64,000 nucleotides of DNA from an uncultured Desulfospira sp. (GCA_963663165.1 OY760175.1:1248001-1312000); one strand, 5' to 3'. Shown: positions 1,706-18,800, counted from the first letter of the stretch. Translations and numbers: made by a program. The notes: a model not told the origin generated them from the letters alone.

Positions 1706-3086
1706 GGGCCTCAGAAAAATTAATATCCACAATTCCATAGTCTGAATTCTGATTTCTATAGACAACATGGAATCGATAGTTTATGGTCAACATGGAAGAT
1801 TACATAAAAAATACAGGAGGACCATGTTTGATCATTCTAAGCACAATTTACCCAAAACTATATCGGAATTAACGCCACCACTAAAGGATTTTCTGAATAC
1901 CACTCGAAGCAAATTAAAAGGCCATGAACGGCGCCAATTCATGGCACGCGTTGTCTCCCTTATGGGGCACGGCGGACAACTAAAGGCTGAAAGAGAACTG
2001 GGTTGGGATCGGAAAACAATAATCAAAGGGCGACGGGAAATAGAAAGCGGAGTTACCTGTGTTGATAATTTTTCCGGACGAGGCCGGAAATCGTGTTTAG
2101 AACATTTTCCGAATTTAAAAGAGGACATAACTCGTATTGTAAACCCTATATGTCAGACTGATCCTACATTCCGTACCCAGAATTTATATTCCCCAATATC
2201 TGCGAATGAAGTATTCCGTCGATTAGTTGACGACATGGGATATGACCCTGAGAATATGCCAACAGTACGGACTCTATCCACCATAATGAATAAATTGGGT
2301 TTTAAACTGAAGAAGGTCGCCAAAGCCAAGGTAAAAAAAAAATTCCTGAAACAGACATCATTTTTGAATATGTGCATAGGACAAACCAACTAGCCGATGA
2401 AACAGATGGCGTTTTACGTATCTCAATGGACGCAAAAGCCACTATTAAAATAGGGCCTTATTCCCGAGGCGGATATAGTCGTTGCAATCTTAAAGCGGCG
2501 GACCATGATTTTAAACCCGATTCCCTTTTGAAACTTTTCGGTATCAACATACCTGCTCTGGATGAAAATTATATGTACTTCACTGAAAGCAACATCACCT
2601 CTGATTTCATGATTGATGCGCTGGAATCACTCTGGCCTTCTTTGAACGCAAGATTCGCCCCACATACACTGGTGATCAATCTTGATAATGGGCCGGAAAA
2701 TAGTAGCCGAAGGAGCCAATTCATTAGTCGCCTCGTGGACTTTGCCAAATCAGCATTTGTAAATATTAGTTTGGTGTACTATCCCCCGTACCACAGTAAA
2801 TACAACCCAATAGAGCGAGTTTGGGGTGTTTTGGAAAATCATTGGAAAGGCGAATTGCTGAACAAAATTGAAAAGGTTCTCGGTCTATGTCGAACAATGA
2901 CATGGAAAGGAGAAAATCCTGTCGTCAAATTAATCAAAGGTGTTTACCCGACAGGGGTACGTTTGGTCAAGTCCGCCGTGAATAATATAGAAAACAAAAT
3001 TATTCGGATTCCAGGGATTGAAAAATGGGCTGTTGATATTCCATGCTATGAGGAATGAATTGTGGGTTTTAATTTTACCACATCCC
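1706..3086 (+). mobile_element. ISAzo13-family insertion sequence, 1381 bp
   Basis: Imperfect terminal IRs (GGGCCTCAGAAAAATTAATATCCACAATTC vs revcomp GGGATGTGGTAAAATTAAAACCCACAATTC); 3-bp TSD TAC at 1703-1705 and 3087-3089. Confidence 0.85.
1824..3058 (+). CDS. ISAzo13-family transposase; two ORFs joined by a -1 frameshift at A10 (2333-2342)
   Basis: Motifs RISMDAKAT, NLDNGPENSSRR and YYPPYHSKYNPIERVW; the -1 frame gives KKIPETDIIF. Confidence 0.85.
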
Positions 3087-3169
3087 TACAAGGAATCTTT
3101 TCTGGATTTCTATTGGCGCTAACGGTTTTATTCATCTGGAAGGACAAATTATGATGACTAATTTAATCG

Positions 3170-3307
3170 CGGGTCGGGCTCACTCAAGTAGTTGGAATTA
3201 AGAGAGGTACGGATAATTGGATAATTGGGATAATTGGGGTCAGAGTAAAATTAAATTGTCGAATGATTCAATGCACCCCGATAATTGGGGTCGTAGTAAA
3301 ATTAAAT
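3170..3307 (+). repeat. GGGGTC-type REP-like junction with GATAATTG(n) stutter
   Basis: GATAATTG-GATAATTGG-GATAATTGGGGTCAGAGTAAAATTAAAT, plus a second copy GATAATTGGGGTCGTAGTAAAATTAAAT. Confidence 0.7.
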
Positions 3308-3313
3308 CATGAT

Positions 3314-3691
3314 TTAAGCCCGAGCCCCCTTTAAAAAAGTATCGATAGTTTTTAAAAGAACCTTCTGCTGTGCCGGCGGAAGGTTCTCTATTTTTTTCAT
3401 CCGCTGCTGTATTTTTAAGTTTGGCTTGCTGACGGCGCCCTTATCCTCTTTAAGGCCCAAAAGACAGTCTGTGGTTTCGCCAAGGGCCATTGCCAGCCTG
3501 ATAATCATCTCGTAATGCGGGCGTATCTTATTGCGCTCGTAGTCAGAGATCAACACCTGTGATATGCCGATCTCATCGGCAAGCCTGATCTGGGTATACC
3601 CTTTTTCTTTTCTTAGCCGGGCAATCCTTTGGCCCAGGCTTTCACTTCCCAAATCCAGTGGCGGCAAATTGTATTTAGACATCCGTGGCAT
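3314..3691 (-). CDS. Xre-family HTH repressor
   Basis: LGQRIARLRKEKGYTQIRLADEIGISQVLISDYER; divergent from the primase operon. Confidence 0.9.
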   Translation of the reverse strand: MPRMSKYNLPPLDLGSESLGQRIARLRKEKGYTQIRLADEIGISQVLISDYERNKIRPHYEMIIRLAMALGETTDCLLGLKEDKGAVSKPNLKIQQRMKKIENLPPAQQKVLLKTIDTFLKGARA

Positions 3692-3842
3692 ACTGCTTTA
3701 TACCATATTTTTTTAAAATCAACCGATTCTCTACTTGACTTGTAAAGTATGATACCGTATTTGTTGATACAGTAAAAAATTTTATTTTAATATAATTTTT
3801 TACTTGACAGGTATTTTTTAAAAGGGGATTTCCGGCTGAAAA

Positions 3843-3891
3843 AAAAGCCATCAACTTTTATGACTTTGGCGGGTCGCAGTTGATGGCTTTT
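3843..3891. promoter_or_regulatory. Inverted-repeat hairpin in the xre/primase intergenic region
   Basis: AAAAGCCATCAACT...AGTTGATGGCTTTT, 14-bp stem. Confidence 0.45.
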
Positions 3892-3995
3892 AAAGGGCGT
3901 CAAAAGAGAAAGCACTCTTTTGATCAGCTTTCTTTTTCTATCGTATCTCCCTTAAGAAATCAAGAATCTGTGAATCCGAAAAAGGAGGTGATCCA

Positions 3996-4334
3996 TTGAG
4001 CACCAACAGCTTAGAGACCACGGATATCTTCAGGGGAGCGTTTTACCTTTGCATGGGAGGTGATCTGGCCGAGATCCGGATGAACCACCGGCAGATTGCA
4101 TCCTTTATGTTTGCAGGTCCGGACCTGGCCAAACATGACAAGGCCTATGTCAACGGCCATGCCCTGGTCAACCCCGTGCAGTTCAGGCAGGCGCTGAACC
4201 ACCTGCGGGATATCCTATTTACGAGATTGAGACAAGGAAGATACGAGAATGATAGAACAAGTAAGGATCGACACCATCAAAACCAGTGTGGACCTTGTGG
4301 CCTATATCGGACAGGCCACCGGAGCCGCATTTAA
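3996..4334 (+). CDS. Small hypothetical protein upstream of the primase
   Basis: Strong RBS AAGGAGGT before a TTG start; overlaps the primase start. Confidence 0.6.
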   Translation: MSTNSLETTDIFRGAFYLCMGGDLAEIRMNHRQIASFMFAGPDLAKHDKAYVNGHALVNPVQFRQALNHLRDILFTRLRQGRYENDRTSKDRHHQNQCGPCGLYRTGHRSRI

Positions 4335-5010
4335 AAAGAACGGCAAGGGGTATGTATGCCGGTGCCCGTTCCCGGACCACGAAGACAAGACCCCGTCCTT
4401 TGTGGTTACTCCCCATGAGAACCTTTGGAACTGCTTTGGCTGCGGCAGGGGCGGTGATGTGTTTGAGTTTGACCGCCTGTATTTTAGCCTGGACTTCAAG
4501 GCATCGGTTCAAAAGCACGAATCCGTTGCCTCGTCCCCAAAGAAGGCAGTTAAAAAGAAAAAGGCCCCAGGCTCAGACAAGGCCCTGACCGTCAAAGAGC
4601 AAAAACTTCTGACCCGAGTGGTATCCTATTACCAGCACAGCTTTGGCGAAGATCCCAAGGGGATGGCCTATCTGAAAACCAGAGGGATCAGAGAAAATCA
4701 ATCGTTCTCGGATTTTGGTGCAGGCTTTGCCAACGGCACCCTGCTCAACATCCTTCCCGAAGATACCGACATTATCAACTCCTTAAAAAAGATCGGGATA
4801 TTGAACAGCCGGGGCAAAGAGGTGTTCATCAACTGCGTGGTGTTCCCGCTGTATGATGACAAGGGATCTGTGGTGAATCTCTATGGCCGGAACATTGACG
4901 ACGGCTGTAGGATCAAGCATTTGTATTTGCCAGGCAAACGCAACGGTCTTGTGAACCGCCAGGCGGCCAAACGGTCCCAGACTTTATACCATCAAAAACG
5001 CCCGGTATGA
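4249..5010 (+). pseudogene. DnaG-like primase (CHC2 zinc finger plus N-terminal catalytic core), truncated before the Toprim domain
   Basis: CPFPDHEDKTPSF...WNCFGCGRGGDVF and VVFPLYD...NLYGR...HLYLPG; primase-like sequence stops at ~4984. Confidence 0.85.
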
Positions 5011-5857
5011 GCTAAGGGCGTTCATCACCTTTATGGCCAAAGAAACGCCCCCGACCCTGGACAACCTGACACGGGAGATCTTGTATGAGTACCAGCAGGA
5101 GCTGGCCTTCAGAGTCTCTTCCAGGGGTAAGCTGTTGAGCCTTCGAACCCAGGGGCAGCGCCTTGGGGTGATCAAATCTTTTACCCGGTATTTAAAGGAA
5201 CATGATTATATGATCCTGGATCCGGGGGATGCCATCAGGTTGCCAAAGACACCCAAGCGTCTGCCAAAGGTGATCCTGAACACTATGGAACTTAAAAAGA
5301 TCATGCAGGCGGCGGACATCCGGACAACCCGGGGTTACAGAAACCGGGTGATCCTGGAGATCCTCTATGATACAGCCATCCGACGATCGGAACTTGCCGG
5401 CATTAAGATCAATAACCTTGATCTGCACTCAGGCTTTATCCATGTTCACGGCAAAGGTGATAAAGATCGTGTGGTGCCGGTGAGTGACCGGGTCAGCCGC
5501 CTGATTGAAAATTATATCGTGATGGTACGTTCGGGATACATTCAGGGGAAGGACACCGGCCACCTGGTCCTGAACCGGTGGGGAGAACAAATGGATCCCA
5601 ACGCCATATGGGCGGTGGTCAAACGATGTGCAGACCTGGCCGGGATCAGAAAGAACGTCTCCACCCACACGTTCCGGCACACCTGTGCCACCCACATGCT
5701 TAAAAACGGTGCCCCGGTCCGGCATATCCAGGAGATGCTGGGCCATGAATCGTTGGAATCCACGCAAGTTTACACCCGGGTGACCATCAACGACCTAAAG
5801 GAGATCCACGCCAAATACCATCCGGGAGAGAAAAAAGGGAATACCTCCACGCATTGA
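4985..5857 (+). CDS. XerD-like tyrosine recombinase, N-terminally truncated by a deletion (first in-frame ATG at 5033)
   Basis: LYDTAIRRSEL, HGKGDKDRVVP, HTFRHTCATH, LGHESLESTQVY; the frame extends upstream as YTIKNARYELRAF. Confidence 0.9.
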   Translation, partial: YTIKNARYELRAFITFMAKETPPTLDNLTREILYEYQQELAFRVSSRGKLLSLRTQGQRLGVIKSFTRYLKEHDYMILDPGDAIRLPKTPKRLPKVILNTMELKKIMQAADIRTTRGYRNRVILEILYDTAIRRSELAGIKINNLDLHSGFIHVHGKGDKDRVVPVSDRVSRLIENYIVMVRSGYIQGKDTGHLVLNRWGEQMDPNAIWAVVKRCADLAGIRKNVSTHTFRHTCATHMLKNGAPVRHIQEMLGHESLESTQVYTRVTINDLKEIHAKYHPGEKKGNTSTH

Positions 5858-5953
5858 CATTGCCAGACTTATGGGTAAATATGGGTAAATTTATGGATAT
5901 TTAATAAGGATGGCCAATGTTGAATCCTAGGATAAAAATCACACCCGAAATCT
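5553..5953 (+). repeat. 401-bp tandem duplication, copy 1 (recombinase 3' end plus fic 5' end); copy 2 is 5954-5996 plus 10208-10564
   Basis: Near-identical copies; differences include TGG>TAG, AAT>AAC and a 1-nt indel. Confidence 0.9.
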
Positions 5954-6134
5954 ACACCGGCCACCTGGTCCTGAACCGGTAGGGAGAACAAATGGATGAG
6001 AATGGTCACAGAAAATCATGGAAAAATTGAAGATAATTTGCAAGATATGTCAGGTTTGAGGCAGAAGTTCCCTTGTTTATCTCGCAAATAATCGTGAAAC
6101 TCCTGCCTCCCCACCCAATAACAGGGCAGGAGAT

Positions 6135-6722
6135 ATGCTATCAGAAGTTCTAAAAAGCGAAAGTCTTTTTTGGAATCTATACAAAATAGATCTGGCAACA
6201 GCCGAACGTTATAGACAGATGAAGTGCCCCCACTGCCAGGGACCGTTGTATTATGCCAATTATCTGCGCAAACCCAGGGGGGAGCCTGAAGGGTTGTCTG
6301 AAGAATGTTTTTTACAATTCAGTTTATGCTGCGGAAGGGAAGGCTGCCGACGGCGTTTGATCCCGCCAACCTGCCGTTTCCTTGGTAAAAACATTTACTG
6401 GTATGCGGCCATTCTGACGATTGTGTCCGACTGGCAGAACCAATCTGTAGGTATCACGATGTCCAGGTTTGCTGAAACAATCGGTATCTCCCGCAACACC
6501 CTTAGACGCTGGGTCGGTTTGTTTAAAGAAATATTTCCAACAAGCGCTCAATGGAAGAAAATCCGGGGCCGAGTGCCTGCAAGCGTGAAAAATGACAGTC
6601 TTCCGGCAAGTTTGGTCAACTTCTATCTGCATCAACAGGCATCCATCAAAGAAACGTTGATCTCCTGTTTGTCATTCTTGTCTCAAGGCAATGAAATATC
6701 ACAAAAAATAAGGGCCGGGTAA
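6135..6722 (+). CDS. Zn-finger plus HTH transposon accessory protein (DUF6431-like)
   Basis: CPHCQG...CCGREGCRRR and IGISRNTLRRW. Confidence 0.7.
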   Translation: MLSEVLKSESLFWNLYKIDLATAERYRQMKCPHCQGPLYYANYLRKPRGEPEGLSEECFLQFSLCCGREGCRRRLIPPTCRFLGKNIYWYAAILTIVSDWQNQSVGITMSRFAETIGISRNTLRRWVGLFKEIFPTSAQWKKIRGRVPASVKNDSLPASLVNFYLHQQASIKETLISCLSFLSQGNEISQKIRAG

Positions 6723-6837
6723 TCTCACGCAGAAGATGGGCGTGGCCTTGGGCGATCAACTGTTCTATCAAAGGGGCCGGGATTTTTATCAGCATTCCGC
6801 TGAAAATTTTAACTTAAAATTGAAAGGACCCCGGCCT

Positions 6838-8283
6838 ATGAACAGTAAAAACCAAAGTCCGGTTGATAAATGGGCTTTGTTTCGCTTCTCAGTCGTTGGT
6901 GGTTTGCTGGCAAATCCGCCGGCCAAGGGTGAGCTGCGTAAGGAACTGGAAAAGCTTTCCAATCAGATTTACACCCATCCCATCACGAACGAATCGACGG
7001 TATTTCATTTTTCAACTATTGAAAGCTGGTATTACAAGGCAAAAAATGCCCAGGACCCCATCATTGCTTTAGGACGGAAAGTTCGTTCAGACTATGGCGG
7101 TTCAATTGTATTCACGCCTGAACTGATCCGGATGCTGGGCAGACAATACCGGACCTATCCGAACTGGAGCTACAAACTGCACGCAGATAATTTCGCAGCA
7201 GAACTTCAAGAAAAAGCCAATTCAGTATCGATACCATCCTATGCCAGTGTCCGGCGGCGGATGGTCGAAAGAGGGTGGACCAGGAAACCCTCAGCCAAGA
7301 AAAAACAGACAGCGGGCATGAAAACTGCCGCAACGCGGTTCGAAAGCCATGAGATCCGTGGATATGAAGCAGAATGTGTTCACAGCCTGTGGCATCTGGA
7401 TTTTCATGAAGGCAGTCTGCGGGTGGTGGATAACAACGGTAACTGGTATACGCCCAAAGCCTTATGTATTCTTGACGACCACTCCCGCCTGTGCTGCCAC
7501 ATCCAATGGTATTCAGGAGAAACCACCCAGGATTTGATTCATGGATTGACCCAGGCCTTTTTCAAAAGGGGGCTTCCCAGGGCACTGATGACGGACAACG
7601 GATCTGCCATGACCTCCCATGAGTTTTGCAACGGGCTTAAGAAAACAGGGATACTTCATGAAACGACATTGCCCTACAGCCCTTATCAAAACGGTAAGCA
7701 GGAAGCCTTTTGGGGCACCCTTGAAGGCAGATTGATGGCCATGCTGACCCGGGTGGACCCTCTGACACTGGAATATCTCAATCACCGCAGTCAGGCTTGG
7801 GTCGAGATGGAATATAACAAAACCAGGCATAGTGACATCGGCACATCTCCTGTTCAACGCATGCTTGAAGGCAAAGATGTTTCCCGGCCGGCACCGGATG
7901 AAGAACAATTACGTTTCGCCTTTACAGTTTGCGAAGTCAGAAATCAGCGCAAGTCTGACGGTACCGTGTCCATCAACGGGGTAAGATTTGAGATCCCTTC
8001 CCGGTTTCACCATATCCCTCGGTTACATGTCTGCTTTGCCAATTGGGATAAATCCATGGCCTGGCTCATGGACCAGAGAACCGGCAAACAGATTGCGCCG
8101 ATCTACCCCCAAGACAAAATCAAAAATGCTTCAGGAAAACGAAAGATCAAGTCGAGACCTGAACATACCATTCTACCGGATGAAACATTGAAAGAATCCG
8201 AGCCTGCATTATTAAGAAAACTGATGGCCGAGTATGCCCAAAGCGGCATGCCCCCAGCCTATCTGCCCAAAGGAGAATCATGA
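6838..8283 (+). CDS. DDE transposase/integrase (rve core, Mu/IS481-like)
   Basis: LWHLDFH, ILDDHSR, MTDNGSAM, PYSPYQNGKQEAFW; C-terminal DGTVSINGVRFE. The track ORF starts at 6736. Confidence 0.9.
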   Translation: MNSKNQSPVDKWALFRFSVVGGLLANPPAKGELRKELEKLSNQIYTHPITNESTVFHFSTIESWYYKAKNAQDPIIALGRKVRSDYGGSIVFTPELIRMLGRQYRTYPNWSYKLHADNFAAELQEKANSVSIPSYASVRRRMVERGWTRKPSAKKKQTAGMKTAATRFESHEIRGYEAECVHSLWHLDFHEGSLRVVDNNGNWYTPKALCILDDHSRLCCHIQWYSGETTQDLIHGLTQAFFKRGLPRALMTDNGSAMTSHEFCNGLKKTGILHETTLPYSPYQNGKQEAFWGTLEGRLMAMLTRVDPLTLEYLNHRSQAWVEMEYNKTRHSDIGTSPVQRMLEGKDVSRPAPDEEQLRFAFTVCEVRNQRKSDGTVSINGVRFEIPSRFHHIPRLHVCFANWDKSMAWLMDQRTGKQIAPIYPQDKIKNASGKRKIKSRPEHTILPDETLKESEPALLRKLMAEYAQSGMPPAYLPKGES

Positions 8284-9107
8284 ACAACAAACAGCTTCTG
8301 GCTTATTACGGCCTTAAATGGAATCCTTTTTTGTCCAATATCCCCGTGGAGGCTTTATGGCATCCGCCATTGATGAACAGTTTTATTTTTCGTCTTGAGA
8401 ATATGACCCTGAACGGGGGCTTTGCTTTGATCAGCGGGGACCCTGGCCTTGGCAAATCCAAGGCGTTGCAGATGATTGCCCAAAAGTTCGGTAAACTTGA
8501 CGAGGTAGTTGTCGGGGTAATGGAACGTCCCCAAAGCAGTGTCGGAGACTTTTACCGGGAAATGGGAGTTTTGTTTGGTGTCAATTTAAGCCCTGCCAAC
8601 CGGTATGGCGGGTTCAAGGATCTTCGGGAGCGCTGGAGGCATCATGTAAAAACCACCTTGTTCCGGCCCATCCTGCTCATAGATGAAGCCCAGGAGATGC
8701 TGACCGGATGCTTAAATGAACTGCGTTTGTTGAACAGCGCGGACTTTGACTCCCAAAACCTGTTGACCACCGTGATTTGCGGCGATGACCGGCTCCCGGA
8801 ACGGTTCAGATCAAGATCCCTGGTATCGCTGGGAAGCCGGATGCAGTTCCGGTTGACGCTGCTTCCCTATGTCCGGGATGACCTGCTGGATTACATGGAT
8901 CACAGCCTGAACCAGGCCGGCGCCCCGCACTTAATGACGAAAACTCTGATCAGGACCCTTGCAGACCATTGCGCCGGCAACCTGCGGGTTCTTAACAGTA
9001 TGGCCGCAGACCTGCTGGCTGCGGGGATTGAGAAAGAACTCAATCAATTGGACGAAAAACTTTTTATGGAAGTCTATTCCAGACAGCCGCCCAATAAAAA
9101 ATCATAG
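8280..9107 (+). CDS. ExeA/TniB-like AAA+ ATPase (transposition helper)
   Basis: Walker A GDPGLGKS, Walker B ILLIDEAQ; ATGA overlap with the transposase. Confidence 0.9.
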   Translation: MNNKQLLAYYGLKWNPFLSNIPVEALWHPPLMNSFIFRLENMTLNGGFALISGDPGLGKSKALQMIAQKFGKLDEVVVGVMERPQSSVGDFYREMGVLFGVNLSPANRYGGFKDLRERWRHHVKTTLFRPILLIDEAQEMLTGCLNELRLLNSADFDSQNLLTTVICGDDRLPERFRSRSLVSLGSRMQFRLTLLPYVRDDLLDYMDHSLNQAGAPHLMTKTLIRTLADHCAGNLRVLNSMAADLLAAGIEKELNQLDEKLFMEVYSRQPPNKKS

Positions 9108-9116
9108 GAGAACAAT

Positions 9117-9299
9117 ATGGGTATTTATGATGATCCGGACATGAAACTGGAAGAAATTACACAGGAATTGGAACATTTTATCCTGGATATGGTCCTTGCC
9201 GGACTTGAAAACTTGAATATGGAATATCGGGCCTTCAGGCAATTCCAGAAACAAAGGCTCACGGAAAAGAACCGTCATAAAGAACACGAGCCGTTTTAA
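9117..9299 (+). CDS. Small hypothetical protein
   Basis: RBS AGGAG, 60 aa, co-oriented within the transposon. Confidence 0.55.
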   Translation: MGIYDDPDMKLEEITQELEHFILDMVLAGLENLNMEYRAFRQFQKQRLTEKNRHKEHEPF

Positions 9300-9336
9300 A
9301 CGTACGCCCGGACTCTAAAGGTCCGGGCCTGCCTCA

Positions 9337-10125
9337 ATGGAAAAAATACTATGGAAAATCGGCAATTATTTTAAGCACCGCTTCAGCCTGGCAGTTCTTG
9401 ATGAAATTAAGGGCCGGTGGCCCGTTCTCCCCTCTTGTAAAAACATCCCTTATCTTAAAGCTGAAAATGCCGGAGGAAGGCACATCCTGATCAGACCTGA
9501 TCCTGTTATTGAGCCTTATTATTTTCTTGCCGACGATTTAAACATTGACCTGCTTATCCGGCATCATCAATCCATATCAAACCGCTTTAAACCAGGCAGG
9601 ATGGTTATGGAAACATCTCCCGGCAATTATCAAATTTGGATTCACAGTGACCGTCCGTTAAGCCTTCCCGAAAAAAAGTATTGGTTGGAAAACATGCACA
9701 GTGATCCCGGCGCCGACCCGAAAAACAGGTGGGGCAGATGCCCCGGGTTCAGGAACAGAAAAGCAAAACATAGAACGCCTTCAGGACAATACCCTTTGGC
9801 AAAGCTATTATGGGTGGACTGGAAATGCCAGGCTATTGTCCCTGAAATAGAATTATCCTCCCGACCTCAAGAAGTCTTTTCCCATCAACCCCGGGGGGGA
9901 GTGTGCCATAACGGTAATATTTCCCGCTCCCTCTATGATAAGGGTGACGAATCTGCCACTGATTTTGCATATGCTCTGGCCCTCTATAGAAGAGGTTTTT
10001 CACGAATGGAAATTTACAATCGCATTATCAATGAAAGGCAGGATTGGATTAATCATGCGGATGAACGAAAAAAAACACAGTATCTGATCAGGACATTACA
10101 AAAAGCTGAAAAAATTATCAGTTAA
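9337..10125 (+). CDS. RepB'-type (RSF1010-like, AEP superfamily) DNA primase
   Basis: FLADDL, METSPGNYQIW, DPGAD...RCPGFRNRKAKH; C-terminal helical DESATDFAYA. Confidence 0.75.
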   Translation: MEKILWKIGNYFKHRFSLAVLDEIKGRWPVLPSCKNIPYLKAENAGGRHILIRPDPVIEPYYFLADDLNIDLLIRHHQSISNRFKPGRMVMETSPGNYQIWIHSDRPLSLPEKKYWLENMHSDPGADPKNRWGRCPGFRNRKAKHRTPSGQYPLAKLLWVDWKCQAIVPEIELSSRPQEVFSHQPRGGVCHNGNISRSLYDKGDESATDFAYALALYRRGFSRMEIYNRIINERQDWINHADERKKTQYLIRTLQKAEKIIS

Positions 10126-10202
10126 AATCGGGCTCTCTTGGCCTCCGGGAAAGCCCTTATTTACCATGAAACGTTGTCCATGAATTATCGTGATTGCTCT
10201 CA

Positions 10203-10469
10203 ATGGATCCCAACGCCATATGGGCGGTGGTCAAACGATGTGCAGACCTGGCCGGGATCAGAAAGAACGTCTCCACCCACACGTTCCGGCACACCTGTGC
10301 CACCCACATGCTTAAAAACGGTGCCCCGGTCCGGCATATCCAGGAGATGCTGGGCCATGAATCGTTGGAATCCACGCAAGTTTACACCCGGGTGACCATC
10401 AACGACCTAAAGGAGATCCACGCCAAATACCATCCGGGAGAGAAAAAAGGGAACACCTCCACGCATTGA
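10203..10469 (+). pseudogene. Duplicated 3' fragment of the tyrosine recombinase
   Basis: Same translation as 5591-5857. Confidence 0.9.
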
Positions 10470-10527
10470 CATTGCCAGACTTATGGGTAAATATGGGTAA
10501 ATTTATGGATATTTAAAAGGATGGCCA

Positions 10528-11577
10528 ATGTTGAATCCTAGGATAAAAATCACACCCGAAATCTTAAACCTCATTGCCAAAATAGACGAGTTCAAAGGGG
10601 AATGGAAAGCCATCGGGAACCTGGCTCCTGATCGCCTCAATGCCCTTAAGCATGTGGCAACCATAGAATCCATAGGGTCTTCCACGCGGATCGAAGGGGT
10701 TAAACTGAGTGATCAGGAGATCGAGTTGCTGTTATCCGGCCTGGACAAAAAGTCTTTTGGCTCCAGGGATGAACAGGAGGTGGCCGGATATGCTGATGTA
10801 ATGAACACCGTGTTTGAATCCTACGGGCAGATCCCGTTTACTGAAAACTATATCAGGCAACTGCACAAGATGCTGCTCCAATACAGCTCAAAGGATACAC
10901 GGCACCGGGGGGAGTATAAAAAGATGACCAATCATGTGGAGGCGTTTGACCATGACGGGAAAAGCCTGGATGTCATCTTTGAAACATCCTCGCCCTTTGA
11001 TACACCCAGAGACATGGAAGAGCTGCTGGCATGGACCAGTAAGCAGTTAAAAGAAAAAGAGCTTCATCCCCTGTTAACCATATCTGTATTTATCGTTCAT
11101 TTTTTGGCCATCCACCCGTTCCAGGACGGCAACGGAAGGCTATCAAGAGTGCTGACAGCCCTGCTGCTGTTGAAAGAGGGATATCTGTACGTTCCCTACA
11201 GTTCCCTGGAAAGTGTGCTTGAAAAAAACAAGGACAACTATTACCTGGCCTTGAGACGGACCCAGGGTTCGTTTAAATCTGAAGAACCGGACTACACTCC
11301 CTGGCTTACCTTCTTCCTGGACGCCCTTGACGCACAAAAGGAAATGCTGGCCCGGAAGATCGAAAGGGAGAACGTTTTTACGAAACTGCCCAAGCTATCC
11401 CGGCAGATCATTGAACTGGTGAAGGATCATGGAGAGCTGTCCATATCAGAGATCGAATCCATCACAGGAGCCAACCGAAACACCATAAAGAAAAAGCTGG
11501 CAGAACTTGTGCGGGACAACCACCTGACCAGGCAGGGCCAGGGTAAAGGGACCCGGTATGTTCCTGGTATAAAATAG
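10528..11577 (+). CDS. Fic-family protein with C-terminal HTH
   Basis: HPFQDGNGRLSR catalytic motif; SSTRIEG inhibitory motif. Confidence 0.92.
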   Translation: MLNPRIKITPEILNLIAKIDEFKGEWKAIGNLAPDRLNALKHVATIESIGSSTRIEGVKLSDQEIELLLSGLDKKSFGSRDEQEVAGYADVMNTVFESYGQIPFTENYIRQLHKMLLQYSSKDTRHRGEYKKMTNHVEAFDHDGKSLDVIFETSSPFDTPRDMEELLAWTSKQLKEKELHPLLTISVFIVHFLAIHPFQDGNGRLSRVLTALLLLKEGYLYVPYSSLESVLEKNKDNYYLALRRTQGSFKSEEPDYTPWLTFFLDALDAQKEMLARKIERENVFTKLPKLSRQIIELVKDHGELSISEIESITGANRNTIKKKLAELVRDNHLTRQGQGKGTRYVPGIK

Positions 11578-11881
11578 CGGATCGTCTCCGGTGCTCGGGC
11601 TCCACCCCTTAGGGGGTTCCGCTGCCTGCGCCCGGAGCCGGCCTTATTATATGCCCGCCCAACCACCCTTTAAATGCGGATGGCTGCGCCGCCTTATTTT
11701 ATATCCCCACCCGCCCGGCGAAAGTGCTGTTCCGGCGCTACGGGCACGCCGGTCGCTCCAACATTGCGTAAAGTCGTTACGTTCGGCGTGTCTGATAAGG
11801 CTGCCTTATCAGACACGGCCGGTCCGTCACAGGTCTTGCAAACTGCCGCAAGACCTGCGCCGGACCGCCTTCCCTCTCTCC

Positions 11882-11909
11882 ACTACACATAACAAACATT
11901 ATGTCTACT
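11882..11909 (+). other. dif-like tyrosine-recombinase site
   Basis: ACTACACATAA-CAAACA-TTATGTCTACT has the 11-6-11 layout and CATAA/TTATGT inner arms of E. coli dif. Confidence 0.6.
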
Positions 11910-12291
11910 TTACGCAATGTTCCGCTTCCTTTGCGCCCTTCGCTGCCTCCACAGCCCTTCCGCTCCCCCTTAAAAAAGGAAGAAGATCCATTTTATATGC
12001 CGGCTGCCGCCGGCAGGCTTCTGCGGTTAAAGAAAAAAAACAGGATAAGCTTGAATATCGGGAAGATATATCATACTACTTCAAATAGCTCTTTTACATG
12101 TTGGAGGCTTTACCAGGAGGGCATTGTGCCATAACCGGACGGTGGGATATCCTTTTCTTTAAAATACCCTCAAATTTGGGTGAAGGGCATTTGAAAGAAA
12201 AGAATATCTTGTGGAATGGGACGATTTAGGTATGGCCGGACAGCTCCGGCACAAAAAACAGCTCTCTAAGAGGGGGAGGTGCATCGCAATA

Positions 12292-12819
12292 CTTCCGGGA
12301 CAATATTGGGATGGGGAGACGGGGCTGCATTATAATTTCCATCGGCATTACGATCCTCATACAGGACGATATCTCGCTGTTGATCCAATTGGCTTATTTG
12401 ACAATGGAGACTTGTTAATAAACCTATTTTTATTCAAAACGAATTCGAAAAAAACTACTTTAATTGGCAACCCTAACCATCAGTATTGTTATGTACGGAG
12501 CAATCCGATCAACATGTTTGATATGTATGGATTGGAGGAAATATTACCCAAAGATTGTAAAGAGGCAAAATGCATAGAAAACTGCGTAAGAGGATGTGGA
12601 GAAAAAGCTACTAAATGCATGATGGGTGCGGTATGGCCATACGGATTCCCAACATGTGAATTGGTATGTGTTGGCTTATCTCTTGGCAAAGGGATTCTGC
12701 CCTGCACTATAATGTGTGGAATATATACAGGTTACATTGTACTTGATTGCGCTTTGGAAGAACAAAGCTGTGTTCAAAGTTGTGAAACAGAATGTTCTGA
12801 CAAAAAACCCGCTACTTAA
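12292..12819 (+). pseudogene. Orphan Rhs core tail plus Cys-rich C-terminal toxin domain
   Basis: PGQYWDGETGLHYNFHRHYDPHTGRYLAVDPIG...NPINMFDMYGL, then a 13-Cys domain; no convincing start. Confidence 0.85.
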
Positions 12820-12853
12820 TAATAAATATTATATTTGGAAGATATAAAAGAAA

Positions 12854-13171
12854 ATGAAAAAATTAATTGTTCGGGTTTTAGGTGCATGTATTTGTTTATT
12901 GTGTGGAATTTATTTTAAAATATCGTTTGAAAGCGTAATAACGAAGTGGGAACATAATGTTCTGAATGTTTGGCCTATAACAACATGGTGTGTTTTTTTA
13001 TTCGGGAACCTCTTATATTTTATTTTTTTTGTTATATCTTTAAGGATGCTTATTTGGGGGAAAATGCCTTCTCTAATTGTAAAAGCTGTATTAGATTTTC
13101 AGAAAATTTGGTTTGTACAATACTTAATTCGATGGACTGAAAAGATCGGGCGTTGGGTCACGCGGTTTTAA
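12854..13171 (+). CDS. Putative membrane immunity protein
   Basis: 105 aa, AT-rich, two hydrophobic segments, directly after the Rhs CT. Confidence 0.65.
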   Translation: MKKLIVRVLGACICLLCGIYFKISFESVITKWEHNVLNVWPITTWCVFLFGNLLYFIFFVISLRMLIWGKMPSLIVKAVLDFQKIWFVQYLIRWTEKIGRWVTRF

Positions 13172-13178
13172 ATTCAGT

Positions 13179-13440
13179 TGACCGGGGACCGGGGGACGGG
13201 CCAAGAAATGCAATGTAACCAATTGATAATAAATGATTTTAATTTTTGAAACACTGGTTTGGGTCTATTATTAGGGCGATAATTGGGGTCCGATAATTGG
13301 ATAATTGGGATAATTGGGGTGACCGGGGGTCGGGCCGCAGCAACCGATTGTAATATAAGAAAAAGAACCAAAATCACACCCCCAAAAACGGCCTTAATCG
13401 CCTCTTTTGGTCTAATGGGGTCAGGCTTGACATTTGGACT
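13179..13440 (+). repeat. GGGGTC/GGGGAC junction cluster with stutter repeats
   Basis: GACCGGGGACCGGGGGACGGGCC; 13292-13320 is identical (29 bp) to 3212-3240; GGGGTCGGGCC; GGGGTCAGGCTTGACA. Confidence 0.7.
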
Positions 13441-13462: not shown

Positions 13463-13675
13463 CTATGCCACAGCCATAAGCTTATCTGTCCGGTCTCCTA
13501 GTGTTTTAATGATTTCCTGGATAGCGTCTACTTCCTGTTCATCAAAATAGACCTCTGCGCATTGTTGACACACCCAGGCCGGCACTTTTTCCAAAGTTAA
13601 GTGGTAGCCCTTTTGATCAATATGAAAAGGTGCCGTGCTTTTGATCATTGTTCCCTGGCAATGCATACACTTCAT
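13463..13675 (-). CDS. YgiT/MqsA-type zinc-finger protein (putative antitoxin)
   Basis: MKCMHCQG...VPAWVCQQCAEVYF. Confidence 0.85.
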   Translation of the reverse strand: MKCMHCQGTMIKSTAPFHIDQKGYHLTLEKVPAWVCQQCAEVYFDEQEVDAIQEIIKTLGDRTDKLMAVA

Positions 13676-13989
13676 GGTTTTTTCCTTGTTTTAAAATCGT
13701 TCTCCCACTCCTGTTCGTCGGGCAGGTAAGCGGTTATAATGGCAAGATAGTCCGGTTTGGGAGAACAAACAACATGGATCGCCCGATCAGGGCAGCCCAG
13801 GACAAGGCAACTGTGGCCCCGGACATCTTCCGGATAATCTTCTATGACCTCACCGTTTTCGATCACGTAACGGATATCCCTGGTGCTTATCATCCTGTCC
13901 GGCCTTGACATCTGGCGTACAGCATGGGGAAGAAACAGTATTTGTTTTTCCGCACTTTTCTGTATGCGGTTCAATATGTCATGTTCCAT
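13672..13989 (-). CDS. DUF4258 protein (putative toxin)
   Basis: HAVRQM...GEVIEDYPEDVRGHSCL...IHVVC...IITAYLPD. Confidence 0.85.
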   Translation of the reverse strand: MEHDILNRIQKSAEKQILFLPHAVRQMSRPDRMISTRDIRYVIENGEVIEDYPEDVRGHSCLVLGCPDRAIHVVCSPKPDYLAIITAYLPDEQEWENDFKTRKKP

Positions 13990-15185: not shown

Positions 15186-15605
15186 TTAACTGTGTGCCAG
15201 TTCTTCAAACTTGTGGCGTTTTATAAACGAATCAAGGACACAGATAAGGGTGTCCTGGTATTCGGCAGGCAGTTTTTCTATATCTTCGATTCGTTCGATA
15301 AGTTGTGCATTTTTCATTTTTTCTGCACCGGTATTCCGTCCTATCACCAGATAATCCAGGCTGACATCAAGTGCTTCGGCAATTCTAACCAGCGTGGGAA
15401 TGGGAGGAGATGACACCCCTCTTTCATATTTAGAAATCTTTTGCAGATCAATGCCCGCCTTTTGGGCTAACTTACCCTGGGACCAGTCTTTATTTTTTCT
15501 TAACCGCTTCAATATGATTGGAAAAGAAAAGGGACTTTTATTTTTTATTGTATCCACAAGACAACCTCCTTTCTTAATCATAGGGCTTTGAATTCTTGAA
15601 ATCAA
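15186..15605 (-). CDS. Xre-family HTH regulator
   Basis: LKRLRKNKDWSQGKLAQKAGIDLQKISKYERG...LDVSLDYL. Confidence 0.88.
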   Translation of the reverse strand: MISRIQSPMIKKGGCLVDTIKNKSPFSFPIILKRLRKNKDWSQGKLAQKAGIDLQKISKYERGVSSPPIPTLVRIAEALDVSLDYLVIGRNTGAEKMKNAQLIERIEDIEKLPAEYQDTLICVLDSFIKRHKFEELAHS

Positions 15606-15846
15606 ATCAATTTTTTCTTAACTTTGCCATATTAAGACACTAATTATCAAATAATGCTATAGTTTTTTCTAAAAATGAGCTTGAGAAAAGAGAGTCCATC
15701 AATCAGACTTTGCCAAAATAACCGGTTAACGGTCAGACAAATCACAAAGGGCAAGCCCGTTCGGAACCGTTTTCTTTTACATTCATATCTCCGGACATAA
15801 GTTCAATCAAATCAGCGACGATGCCCCTGATACCGGCTGGGGAGAA

Positions 15847-18800
15847 TTGCCCATCCGTATCCAAACCACGGACACAGGCCCGGTGGTAACCAGTGAGCCC
15901 AACCGCATAGAAACCGGCCTTTCCCTGGACCAAAGCATTACAGAAACCCTCACCCTCAAGAACATGGGGTTCGCCCCCCTGGTTGATCCTGCCGTGTCCC
16001 TGGTAAACCGTGACGGCACCCCGGCCCCGGGCTGGGTGTTGCTGAACCTGCCGTCGGACATTGATGCCGTTGAGGTCGGGGAAAGCGTGGATGCCACGCT
16101 GTTGTTTTCTCCCCCCCCCCAGGGGGCGGTATCAGAAGGCGATTATTATTTTTATATCCAGTTGGAAGGCGCCAATTATGCGGCCGTAAACATCCCTGTT
16201 CATGCAGCGGTCACCAGTTCGGGCACGGGCCATATCCTGTTCAAGGTATCGGACATCTACACCGGCACCATTGATGAAAAAACCGGCAAGATGATCCAGG
16301 GGCTGTCCGGAGCCGCGTTGACCCTGCAAAACGAGAATGCCGCAAGCATCACCTACAGCGGCGGTACGGACCAATACGGGGAACTGCTCTTATCCGACAT
16401 CCCCGCAGGCCGGTACAAGTACATCCTGAAAGCGGACGACCATGAGCAATCCATCGGCCGGGTCTGGATCAAGCCGGGCATTACGGCCACCCAGGATGTT
16501 TTTTTAAACAACACCCTGGTGACCGTGGAGTGGTCAGTGGTTGAAACCGGTATTCAGGACCAGTATGAGATCGTATTAAAGGCCACCTATGAGACCAATG
16601 TCCCGGCACCGGTGGTGGTGGCCGATCCCCTGTCCGTCTCCCTTGCGGGCATGTCACCCGGCGATGTCCTGTCCGGAGAAATCCGGTTCACCAATTATGG
16701 GCTGATCCGGGCGGACAATATTGAATTTGCGGCCCCTTCGTCTGACCAATATTTTAAATACGAGTTTTTAGACATCCCTGCCACCATAGAAGCCAAAGAA
16801 TCTGTCAATGTGGCTTATCGTGTAACCTGCCTTTCCAGCCTGACCGGTGAAGATGAGGGCAACGGTGGGGAAACCGGCGGCTATTCGAAATCGGGTAAAA
16901 TGAGTTACTCTGCCAAATGTTACTCCGGGTCTATATCAGTTAATTTCAATGTCCCGGGAACCGGCAGCGGTGGTGACTGGACAATGCCTTGGGGATCGGC
17001 GAGCAGCACAGGCTTTGGCCGTTCCAGCGAAATTCCCGAAGGGGTGAAATGCTGGCCGGGTTTTGACCGTGAAGAACCATCATTTTTTAACGCTGCAAAA
17101 TCAAATCAAGTCCAATGCGTTTTGTCTTCAGTGAATATGCTGCATCGGGAATATAATCGCCACAAAACCGACATCCGGGTCAAGGTGCCCGGCGGGACGA
17201 TAAGTTTTGAACGGCGGTATTACGACAACCAGTGGCACCTGGATTATCTGGATGATAATTTAACCTTTCAAAGCACAGGATCGGACTTAATTATTAAAAA
17301 CGATGTTAAATACAAACCTGTCGCCAACGACAGCCGTATTTTTATCCATAAAAATTATAAAATCATCACTACCGACACCGGGTATACCTGGAAGGCACCC
17401 CATGGCGACTGGAAAAAATTTGACCCGGACGGCCGCATGATGTCTTACGGTGACCGGAACGGCCTGGTGGCCCAACTCATTTACGAAGATGGAGAAAATG
17501 GACGCCTTACAGGCATAGCCGATAAAAACATGCGCCAAATATTCTGGTTTGAATACGACGGGGAAGGAAACCTGGCAGCCGTAGAAGACTTTGAGAGGCG
17601 TCGGATTGAATACTCTCATGGGAATGGCCTGCTTACGGACGTCCAGGATTTACAGGGGAATACAACCAGCTATGAATACGACGATGAGAACCGGATTATA
17701 AAGACAACTACGCCAGACGGGCATTATTCCACAGTGGTATACGACGAATACGACAATGTGACTCAATCCCTGGATGAAAATAACCAGGGGTACGGTTTTG
17801 AGTATGTCTATAGTGAATCCACAAGGCTGTCTTATGCCATGGTCACTTCTCCTGCAGGGCAGGTCAAGGAGGCCTGTTATGACCTGGACGGGTACACCCG
17901 CAGGGTTGACATAAACGGGCGTACAGTCAAGACCATTGATGTATCACTAAGAACCTTTGCCGTGACCGATGAGAACGGCAATGTAACCATAGAAGAGTAT
18001 GATGAATGGGGAAATTTAACCCGGATGAGCTACCCGGACGGCAGTGAAGTAACCTACGAATACGAACGGACCTATAACCAACCGGTCCGCAAGGTAAATG
18101 AAAACGGGGTGGTAAGCTTTTTTGAATATGACGACAACGGCAACCTGACCCAAAAGACGGAAGCAGCCGGAACCGATGATGAACGGATAACCCAACACAC
18201 CTATGATGAAGACGGCAATACCCTGACCATCACCATTTTGGCGGATGCCGATACAAGTGTCTCTCAAACCGTGATGACCTATGATGACAACGGCAACCTT
18301 GAAACCCTTACCGACCCGGCAGGCGGAATTACCCGGTTCACCGATTATGACATTACAGGCAGGCTCCTTACAAAAATCGACGCCAGGGGCAAAACCTGGG
18401 GCTATACCTACGACAACAAGGGCAATCTTAAAACCGCCACCGATCCTTTGGGCAACACCACTGAATATGAATACGATAAAGCCGGCAATCGAACCCGAAT
18501 GGTGGATGCCCTGGGCCGCCAGACCCTGTTCGAATATGATCTCCACGGCAACCTTGTCCTGCAAACCGACCACGAGGGCAACGAAACCCGGTTTGAATAT
18601 GATGCCGGCAATAACCTGATCCGGAAAACCGATGCCCAGGGCTCCACCACCCAAAGTACCTATGACACCGAAGGCCGCATGGTCAGCACGGTTGACGGCC
18701 ATGGGGATGAGACCGCTTTCGAATACAATGATACAGATACCGGCTGCTCGTCCTGCAACGGTTCCCGGGGCCTGCCCTCCAGGATCATCTATCCCACGTT

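Follow-up and report, generated by a model that had tools for sequence, protein, structure and literature searches.

A probable family of rhs-targeting mobile elements that swap toxin tips, with a decayed copy in an uncultured Desulfospira sp.

How Rhs and other polymorphic toxins acquire new C-terminal tips has been an open question since the displacement model of 2009. As set out in the sections of Jackson 2009 (PMC2935791) available to us, an incoming tip with a piece of the core replaces the expressed tip, and the old tip is left downstream, giving rise to strings of orphans; the exchange is ascribed there to homologous recombination, a circular intermediate is postulated, and, in those sections, no integrase is known to accompany rhs genes. 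Here we describe a locus of an uncultured Desulfospira sp. (positions 3314-13171 of GCA_963663165.1 OY760175.1:1248001-1312000, the 64,000-nucleotide stretch that was analysed and that we call the window) together with the family of elements to which it belongs. We consider it probable that this is a family of rhs-targeting mobile elements that swap the toxin tip together with its immunity gene, and that the window holds a dead copy of one of them.

The part of the 2025 preprint at hand (PMC12247911) describes the rAID loci of Bacteroidales as a single tyrosine recombinase upstream of a co-oriented array of orphan immunity genes with conserved intergenic motifs. The accessible portion of Zhang 2012 (PMC3482391) reports XerC/D genes beside polyimmunity loci, and the excerpt of Steele 2017 (PMC5727410) that we drew on reports uncharacterised integrase-like genes that recur by the rhs loci of bee-gut bacteria and may help Rhs capture. 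A full-text literature search, with subscription journals outside its range, returned no description of an rhs-targeting element with a primase and two recombinases, and the family is apparently undescribed. An earlier note on this DNA, which had read the region as a primase/integrase element that carries or shuffles toxin tips, knew no named class with such a layout; the named element classes tested below did not match it either.

Boundaries of the mobile unit and its target codons

Relatives of the primase are numerous: 4,726 of the 8,000 candidates scored match at E ≤ 1e-10, mostly on contigs of 4-10 kb. A scan for related loci, with one genome per species, confirmed 147 stretches, of which 78 loci were kept (L numbers below). 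By record titles, their hosts are Desulfobacterota, Nitrospirota, a metagenome-assembled genome of Spirochaetes and others, often with several loci per genome; L050 and L053, for instance, are intact copies in the complete genome of Desulfosarcina alkanivorans PL12. The conserved unit consists of a divergent Xre repressor gene, a small-protein gene, a gene for a primase of ~880 amino acids (aa) with a putative P-loop C-terminal half, two genes for Xer-like tyrosine recombinases (Int1 and Int2), often a structured motif of ~190 nucleotides (nt), and a Rhs-core fragment. On a tblastn map, the primase is followed by both recombinases in 54 of the 56 loci with more than 2.3 kb of downstream sequence, and the divergent Xre lies ahead of the primase in 47 of the 50 loci with more than 1.2 kb upstream.

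The extent of the mobile unit emerges from nearly identical elements in different surroundings. Locus L040 contains two copies of an 8,344-bp unit, 99.985% identical, in tandem; the unit begins at the ..LNNP codons that end a 2,134-aa Rhs and continues with a tip, a small open reading frame (ORF), Xre, the small protein, the primase, Int1, Int2 and a non-coding block. The same element, again 99.985% identical, is found in a second rhs gene of that organism (L042), at the same codons and flanked by 47-bp repeats encoding ALNNPVMFIDPLGLC. Between L040 and L042 the tip upstream of Xre is identical and the downstream tip is different. In L002, a paralogue of the window copy in its own genome, 47-bp repeats encoding SNNPLRFTDPDGLMA lie at 246-292 and 9759-9805. 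Another genome carries a common 6,888-bp element at two loci (99.985% identity): in L095 it sits in an rhs gene at RxRYYDP codons, and in L094 (7890-14777) it occupies a gene of tandem ~75-aa repeats with ~6-9 nt in common with the site, which appears to be a secondary-site insertion.

As the tandem dimer, the copy in a second rhs gene and the copy outside rhs agree, we take the unit to comprise the attachment site, a tip and immunity gene of its own, Xre, and the genes for replication and recombination; judging from these alignments, the orphan behind the recombinases pre-dates the insertion. The earlier note was thus right about a mobile element linked to toxin tips and wrong about its cargo, which it had placed in the downstream orphan: what travels is the tip and immunity gene upstream of Xre (L040/L042, L094/L095 and the closed units of L061 and L107 described below). 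The comparison with relatives that it had proposed for defining the boundaries placed the junctions at conserved Rhs codons; no empty site was found. One element at different loci, with a constant junction and short repeats, is the hallmark of site-specific integrative elements, and both L040/L042 and L094/L095 display it, a statement that applies to the family and is not demonstrable for the window copy itself. Of 17 loci, nine have a Rhs ORF of 1,074-2,134 aa across the left junction; in three the ORF runs off the contig, and in the other five it is a short orphan, which would point to insertions into earlier insertions.

The junctions fall into three target classes, PGQY, RxRYYDP and NNPxxxxDPxGL. 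In the last of these, a GGAT(T/A/C)A-type left arm faces an AAT(A/G)ATCC right arm on the element side of 11 of 15 junctions, the right arm being the N-N-P codons, and the junction of L047 is a perfect 10-6-10 inverted repeat. An inverted repeat around a spacer is the geometry of Xer-type sites. Junctions of the PGQY class, that of the window included, read arm motif, AATAYTT, seven nt and AATATT, with the AATATT block in the Q-Y codons; the window core, an imperfect inverted repeat, occupies ~12287-12307. As read from these sequences, the attachment site mimics conserved Rhs codons, so that insertion would fuse the tip of the element in frame to the resident Rhs. The use of three codon blocks by different lineages suggests that the recombinase/site pair can evolve new targets.

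These junctions also bear on whether the element could instead enter by RecA-dependent homologous recombination via its core fragment, as in the 2009 model, with the recombinases merely resolving circle multimers. This is unlikely. The junction repeats of the long-core lineages (89-171 bp, 82-88% identity) would suit such a route, and so would the dif-like palindrome inside the element. Xer-like pairs classically resolve dimers, which is the task they would have here. In the NNP class, however, the common stretch is just 43-47 bp (79-94% identity), every mapped junction coincides with the left edge of the homology, and a recombinase-site-like inverted repeat is found exactly at the element-side junction. 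Furthermore, the insertion of L094 into a non-rhs gene with ~6-9 nt in common is a prediction of site-specific, not of homologous, recombination.

We propose the following model of site-specific insertion. A live element would be small (~6.7-8.3 kb), integrative and probably self-replicating. Its circle would read attP, its own tip and immunity gene, Xre on the opposite strand, the small protein, the primase, the two recombinases, often the structured motif, and back to attP. The core of attP would be an inverted repeat whose right arm stems from the conserved codons of the Rhs shell end (NNP, RxRYYDP or PGQY by lineage). The two recombinases, probably as a heteromer, would catalyse the crossing of attP with the matching codons of a chromosomal rhs gene. 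The resident Rhs shell would thereby continue in frame into the new tip, followed by the new immunity gene, and the old tip/immunity pair would end up as an orphan on the downstream side of the element. Orphan arrays would then arise by successive insertions. The primase would replicate the excised circle, and the element would presumably move between cells. If true, the model would explain the origin of the orphan tip arrays in these bacteria and would constitute a natural site-specific recombination that exchanges a protein domain in frame, re-arming the resident toxin. The mapped junctions, attachment core, recombinases and target codons make the question of tip acquisition testable.

Exact terminal overlaps, compatible with circular or tandem units, were observed in 2 of the 53 loci that span a whole contig: 151 nt in L061, whose contig name carries k151, and 121 nt in L107. 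Closing L107 yields a 6,724-bp unit in which an 878-aa primase ORF is restored and the order is primase, Int1, Int2, structured motif, PGQY core fragment with tip, and Xre. The closed L061 is a 7,385-bp unit with a NDPVNWIDPWGL-led tip between Int2 and Xre. Neither unit contains a Rhs shell. On their sequence, both would match the predicted excised form; a tandem array would assemble alike.

As for the association with Rhs, the tblastn map has a Rhs-core fragment within 2.5 kb past the second recombinase in 18 of 39 loci. When 20 of the 21 tblastn-negative loci were re-examined (L041, a second record of the L040 isolate, was omitted), 14 were found to have an ORF that opens with a short NNPxxxxDPxGL-type remnant or, in L081, with a longer core piece. 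The earlier note had suggested a search for CHC2 primases with tandem recombinases near Rhs core, and had regarded homologous loci devoid of any Rhs association as fatal to its reading; the search has instead found that association.

Several observations weigh against the proposed model. Foremost, neither excision nor integration was seen directly. A terminal overlap is expected of a free circle and of a tandem array alike, and the dimer of L040 may have arisen in assembly. Assembled contigs of four runs, placed on positions 1-12500 of L002, contain no excision or circle joint of that locus, rare variants being lost in assembly; one joint that goes back, from 9516 to 2657, comes from a run of another organism and has unknown letters between its sides, and further joints at a 227-bp repeat are read as alternative paths through repeats. 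The chromosomal-side left arm of the core is poorly conserved, and recombinase binding there is therefore an assumption. In the window, neither left junction nor cargo is identifiable, since the 8 kb to the left of Xre are filled with three insertion sequence (IS) elements and small ORFs, and a 29-nt direct repeat that flanks the locus is not accounted for by the model. Of the 18 loci whose upstream sequence exceeds 4 kb, just 10 were found to have Rhs core there, and no Rhs remnant was found past the recombinases in 6 of the 20 re-examined loci (L066, L072, L084, L089, L094 and L111). Two of these, L089 (from 7662 onward) and L111 (from 7621 onward), have a different kind of ORF at that place (440-460 aa, starting ..HILGRGHNQILVQ..) and may represent a lineage with another target or cargo. 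No candidate genes for cell-to-cell transfer were found. Finally, the structured motif is not universal, lying within 1.2 kb after Int2 in 19 of 51 eligible loci, and it also occurs elsewhere, inverted, or solo by toxin-antitoxin genes.

The scarcity of upstream Rhs core and the crowding of the window region with IS elements and relics would also accord with an ordinary integrative island or phage satellite, similar to phage-inducible chromosomal islands (PICI) or P4, that lands in insertion-tolerant rhs arrays where the tips are unrelated residents. Repressor, primase and integrase are, indeed, the core layout of satellites. We nevertheless regard this explanation as very improbable, considering (i) the absence of packaging, capsid or other phage matches among the element ORFs scanned, which extends to the family the earlier note's remark that phage structural and conjugation genes are lacking, (ii) the junctions, which are precise to the codon and in 9 of 17 loci continue full-length Rhs in frame, (iii) the core fragment and tip carried by the closed L061 and L107 units, and (iv) the identical tips that identical elements bring into different genes.

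The window copy and its intact paralogue

The features listed in the earlier note are all present where it placed them, as checked with ORF, Pfam and NCBIfam analyses (Table 1). The window copy is a dead, decayed element. Its primase aligns to residues 1-246 only of its ~880-aa relatives (residues 1-237 of L002), and the tblastn match to residues 26-308 of Int2 starts at 4988, which together point to a single ~3-kb deletion that joins primase codon ~246 to recombinase codon ~27. Most of the primase, all of the first recombinase and the start of the second are gone. We suppose that the deletion, the transposon, the duplication and the Fic gene inactivated the copy, and that its left cargo was lost among IS elements.

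Table 1 Features of the window in and around the decayed element (positions of the 64,000-nt window)
Feature	Position	Strand	Basis or remark
Exact 29-nt direct repeat	3212-3240 and 13292-13320		Left copy of 8-9-nt tandem units, then IS-end-like motif
Xre-type helix-turn-helix repressor, RstR-like	3314-3691	-	Pfam HTH_3, E 3.6e-14; divergent from replication-recombination operon
Divergent promoter region with conserved hairpin	3692-3995		Stem GCCATCAAC / GTTGATGGC
Small protein, 112 aa, basic C-terminal tail	3996-4334	+	Conserved; no family assigned
Primase remnant: CHC2 zinc ribbon, DnaG_N, first part of catalytic core	4249-4987 (ORF to 5010)	+	Pfam
Int2-type Xer-like tyrosine recombinase, without first ~26 residues	4988-5857; ATG ORF 5033-5857	+	Pfam Phage_integrase, E 1.6e-42
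401-bp tandem duplication	Copy 1: 5553-5953; copy 2: 5954-5997 and 10209-10564		Self-comparison
Nested 4.2-kb transposon, foreign to the element	5998-10201	+	Pfam; genome copies; ends
Fic protein with C-terminal winged-helix region	10528-11577	+	Pfam Fic, E 1.7e-17
Conserved non-coding block (SR)	11579-12041	+	BLAST, alignment to L002
SR core, ~190-nt multi-helix structured motif	11760-11950	+	RNAalifold, covariance model
Inverted repeat ACATAA-N6-TTATGT	11887-11904		Dif-like palindrome of the earlier note
ORF with Rhs-core remnant and tip	12211-12819	+	TIGR03696 Rhs_assc_core, E 6.3e-15
attR, PGQY class	12250-12307	+	Flank alignment with L106, L109, L116, L114, L107, L082, L117
Rhs-core remnant, PGQYWD to DMYGL, 80 codons	12295-12534	+	Translation; TIGR03696
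Orphan toxin tip, 94 aa, Cys-rich, hydrophobic	12535-12816	+	Translation
Presumed immunity protein, 105 aa, hydrophobic	12854-13171	+	Position directly 3' of tip
Second family relic	15186-15846	Xre2 (15186-15605) -	With promoter region homologous to L002 Xre-small intergenic region

The nested transposon carries a 195-aa ORF and genes for an rve transposase, an AAA_22 ATPase and a RepB-type primase; it is bounded by a 7-bp target duplication and recurs in ~11 genome copies, whole or partial, at 97-100% identity. It splits the second copy of the 401-bp duplication, the first being uninterrupted. The duplication extends from the 3' end of the recombinase gene across the spacer to nt 37 of Fic, and its second copy has a G-to-A change that creates a stop. 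Two attributions of the earlier note did not survive comparison. Fic, counted there as part of the element, follows the recombinase in the window copy only, among the mapped-locus matches listed (tblastn, 78 loci), with L036 carrying Fic on the opposite strand; and position 3314, taken as the left boundary, is not an element end.

The window proteins are most similar to those of L082, which has the same order of Int2, SR and PGQY junction and whose Int2 and Xre are 70% and 73% identical to those of the window. The best NCBIfam match of the window Xre is the RstR repressor family (69.6 bits, below the cut-off of 80). The window recombinase scores 222.7 bits against XerD (cut-off 329.6) and 220.5 against XerC (cut-off 335), and Int1 and Int2 of L002 score 222-252 bits against XerC/XerD, below the equivalog cut-offs; by these models, the recombinases are Xer-like and are not XerC or XerD themselves. 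The small protein is 43-69% identical to 13 homologues at the equivalent position in related loci (14-sequence alignment) and has no Pfam, NCBIfam or PHROGs match. Its AlphaFold2 model, with a predicted local distance difference test score (pLDDT) of 80.4, consists of a beta-alpha-beta-beta-alpha arrangement and a long helix, and found no Foldseek match in the Protein Data Bank (PDB) at E ≤ 0.001 (best E 0.13). The leader hairpin between Xre and the small ORF is kept in three copies, at 3848-3893 and ~15700-15760 of the window and at ~3700-3760 of L002, as judged from a three-way alignment of the two window copies and L002, and may be an operator or attenuator.

Within the ORF that holds the orphan, the core remnant begins at residue 29 (PGQYWD...DPIGL...DMYGL) and matches the core of the full rhs (20365-20407) at 84% identity over 43 nt. 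The tip has no Pfam or NCBIfam family match, and a search for relatives in longer proteins found none (five candidates, none of which was scored); the 105-aa ORF has no match in these two databases either and is presumed to encode the immunity protein from its position after the tip. A core piece with a DPxGL-type end, a 94-aa tip and a 105-aa ORF form the layout of a Rhs orphan tip/immunity module, to which we assign them by sequence. Rather than cargo, this orphan probably represents a resident tip that was displaced, or one that belonged to an older insertion.

A BLAST search of the whole genome with the region located a second copy of the SR block, 91% identical and 556 kb away, in the intact paralogue L002. 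L002 opens with the 3' end of an rhs gene and a 239-aa ORF; next come Xre, encoded on the minus strand, and a 103-aa ORF. Its 890-aa primase comprises the zinc ribbon, DnaG_N, Toprim and a ~520-aa C-terminal half with Walker-type motifs, the latter read by eye alone; beyond residue ~376 the primase has no family or PDB sequence match, and the precomputed Pfam accession PF27228 is listed for its relatives. Two Xer-like recombinases of 325 and 311 aa follow in tandem, and then the SR block. The orphan tip of L002 has a weak similarity to YwqJ deaminases (24.3 bits, Pfam cut-off 25.9), is adjoined by a MORN-repeat ORF, and matched itself alone among 301 genomes of the order. Since the proteins of the window and L002 are just 41-49% identical and their SR blocks are 91% identical, a recent SR exchange between the two resident copies is suggested by the sequences. 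Homologues of the 103-aa ORF of L002 sit after the second recombinase in L050 (14770-15069), L053, L054, L056 and L035; the window-type small ORF stays ahead of the primase.

A ~45-kb array of co-oriented rhs genes and fragments ends, on its downstream side, in the window. The 21-nt core of the flanking 29-nt repeat occurs at these two sites only in the 6.74-Mb genome. The repeat was rejected as attL/attR or as a crossover site because the junctions of the family lie at Rhs codons. Short tandem units with a GGGGTCAG IS-end-like motif also mark IS ends in other parts of the genome, as well as the border between cargo and backbone in L002 and L042. The GGGGTCAGAGTAAAATTAAAT-type motif (window 3229-3307 and 13278-13320) has eight genome copies, often after 8-9-nt tandem units, and forms two inverted pairs 0.75 and 2.6 kb apart that resemble the ends of IS elements or miniature inverted-repeat transposable elements. 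An ISAzo13-type IS at 1767-3088 has a frameshifted transposase, and its last 88-89 nt recur at more than 20 genome sites with 99-100% identity. An 85-nt repeat at 13326-13410 has at least eight further genome copies (80-84% identity), several of them in the upstream rhs array.

The second relic is fused to a 5'-shortened rhs gene (15847-20862), which encodes 1,671 aa, starts with TTG directly behind the element-type promoter region, and lacks ~200-300 codons at its 5' end relative to two paralogues (1,862 and 1,962 aa) that lie upstream of the window. Between the two relics, 13463-13989 on the minus strand codes for a DUF4258 protein (13672-13989) and an MqsA-like zinc-ribbon ORF (13463-13675), probably a toxin-antitoxin pair.

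A structured motif between the recombinases and the orphan tip

The first ~95 nt of SR are found apart from the rest in other genomes, so SR is composite and was rejected as a single unit. Its core aligns across families with many compensatory changes, and RNAalifold predicts 37 pairs, 15 of them with double changes. A covariance model (R1) built from 13 sequences found 51 matches in 89 sources and scores the window motif at 197 bits. In the model-fitted alignment, 93.9% of the cells are paired, as against 34-47% when the partners are slid, double changes occur in 22 of the 37 pairs, and none of 500 shuffles reaches the observed score. Helix 2 is rich in G-U pairs on the operon strand, which favours folding of that strand, most simply as RNA. 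Rfam 15 has no covariance-model match at E ≤ 1 in 11579-12041. The family thereby brings with it a ~190-nt structured motif with strong covariation that is absent from Rfam.

The dif-like site of the earlier note proved to be hairpin 4 of this motif; no mapped junction lies there. The arms ACATAA and TTATGT of hairpin 4 are invariant in 13 of 13 aligned sequences, and its loop varies from 4 to 8 nt across relatives. That invariance would be expected if the palindrome were a recombination site at which tip cassettes are captured or inverted in an integron- or shufflon-like manner, with the downstream orphan tip and immunity gene as cargo. In the window, in L002 and in 19 of 51 eligible loci, the motif separates the recombinases from the orphan tip, which agrees with such a scheme, as do the inverted motif copies that bracket the backbone in L085, L089 and L111, and the motif of L031, which stands between orphan tips in opposite orientation with no recombinase nearby. 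We nonetheless find cassette capture quite improbable. The boundaries of the identical elements lie at Rhs codons, 200-700 nt past the motif, and the identical copies have the upstream tip in common and differ in the downstream one (L040/L042, L094/L095). Moreover, the 4-8-nt spacer of the palindrome fits a hairpin loop rather than a crossover region of fixed length, free covariation is seen in the other helices, and the G-U pairs mark one strand.

The motif is inverted to the left of Xre in L053, L085, L089, L111, L062 and L088. The notion that SR is strictly element-bound was rejected, as solo copies occur in L030, L031 and genome G065 (by a YoeB-like gene). The last of these, in L126 (G065:C1, 12290-12488), is a full-length motif of 89.6 bits by a YoeB-like toxin and housekeeping genes, with no element or Rhs gene within 10 kb. 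With stricter filters, the model finds the motif in 5 of 150 other genomes of the order; BLAST matches to the SR block occur in 14 of 300.

Returning to the tip-swapping model, our preferred reading is that the motif would function as an RNA element where transcripts of the operon read through into the tip and immunity genes downstream. Read-through driven by it would keep the displaced immunity gene expressed after a swap. A role of the motif as single-stranded DNA in priming or recombination may also be envisaged. For the full joint reading, in which self-replicating vehicles of Rhs C-terminal displacement use heteromeric recombinases, a core that doubles as codons and a motif RNA that governs read-through, we see the chances as evenly poised.

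Comparison with known systems

Integrative mobile elements exploiting Xer (IMEX), such as CTX phi, have no recombinase of their own and use host XerCD at dif; they carry an RstR-like repressor and recombine through folded single-strand sites. The present family resembles them in its Xer-type chemistry, its RstR-like repressor and a two-arm site around a short centre. Unlike IMEX, it encodes its own recombinase pair, present in 54 of 56 loci, and targets the protein-coding codons of rhs, where its junctions lie.

Phage satellites (PICI and P4-like) are small elements in which a divergent repressor adjoins an operon of primase-type replication and integrase genes. Neither the window element nor L002 has Pfam or PHROGs matches to packaging or capsid-redirecting genes, and the family differs from satellites in having two recombinases and an in-gene target whose 3' end is given a different functional module.

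Integrons acquire promoterless cassettes site-specifically through a recombinase that acts on a structured site. Here, the integron-integrase models score far below their cut-offs (99-123 bits versus 265 for TIGR02249 and 61-78 versus 435 for NF011946), and the motif occurs once per element, after Int2 or near Xre, with the L031 motif lying between two successive orphans. In contrast to integrons, the whole element integrates with its replication genes, and there is no attC after each cassette. Gamma-Mobile-Trio elements combine the recombinase GmtY with GmtX and GmtZ; the GmtY model (NF040693) scores 23-31 bits here, against a cut-off of 340.

In the rAID and polyimmunity loci, as far as the available parts of PMC12247911 and PMC3482391 describe them, a tyrosine recombinase is likewise linked to orphan arrays of interbacterial conflict with conserved intergenic motifs. 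By that description, rAID loci are set apart from a layout of Xre, primase, two recombinases and tips with core remnants: they hold immunity genes only and have no primase, Xre or toxin-gene fusion. The excerpt of Steele 2017 describes no unit, attachment site or primase for the integrase-like genes beside bee-gut rhs loci. In outcome, the family agrees with the displacement model in the available sections of Jackson 2009, in which a new tip likewise comes in and the old one is orphaned downstream; the circle proposed here differs from the one postulated there in that it would replicate, encode two recombinases of its own and possess a defined attachment core.

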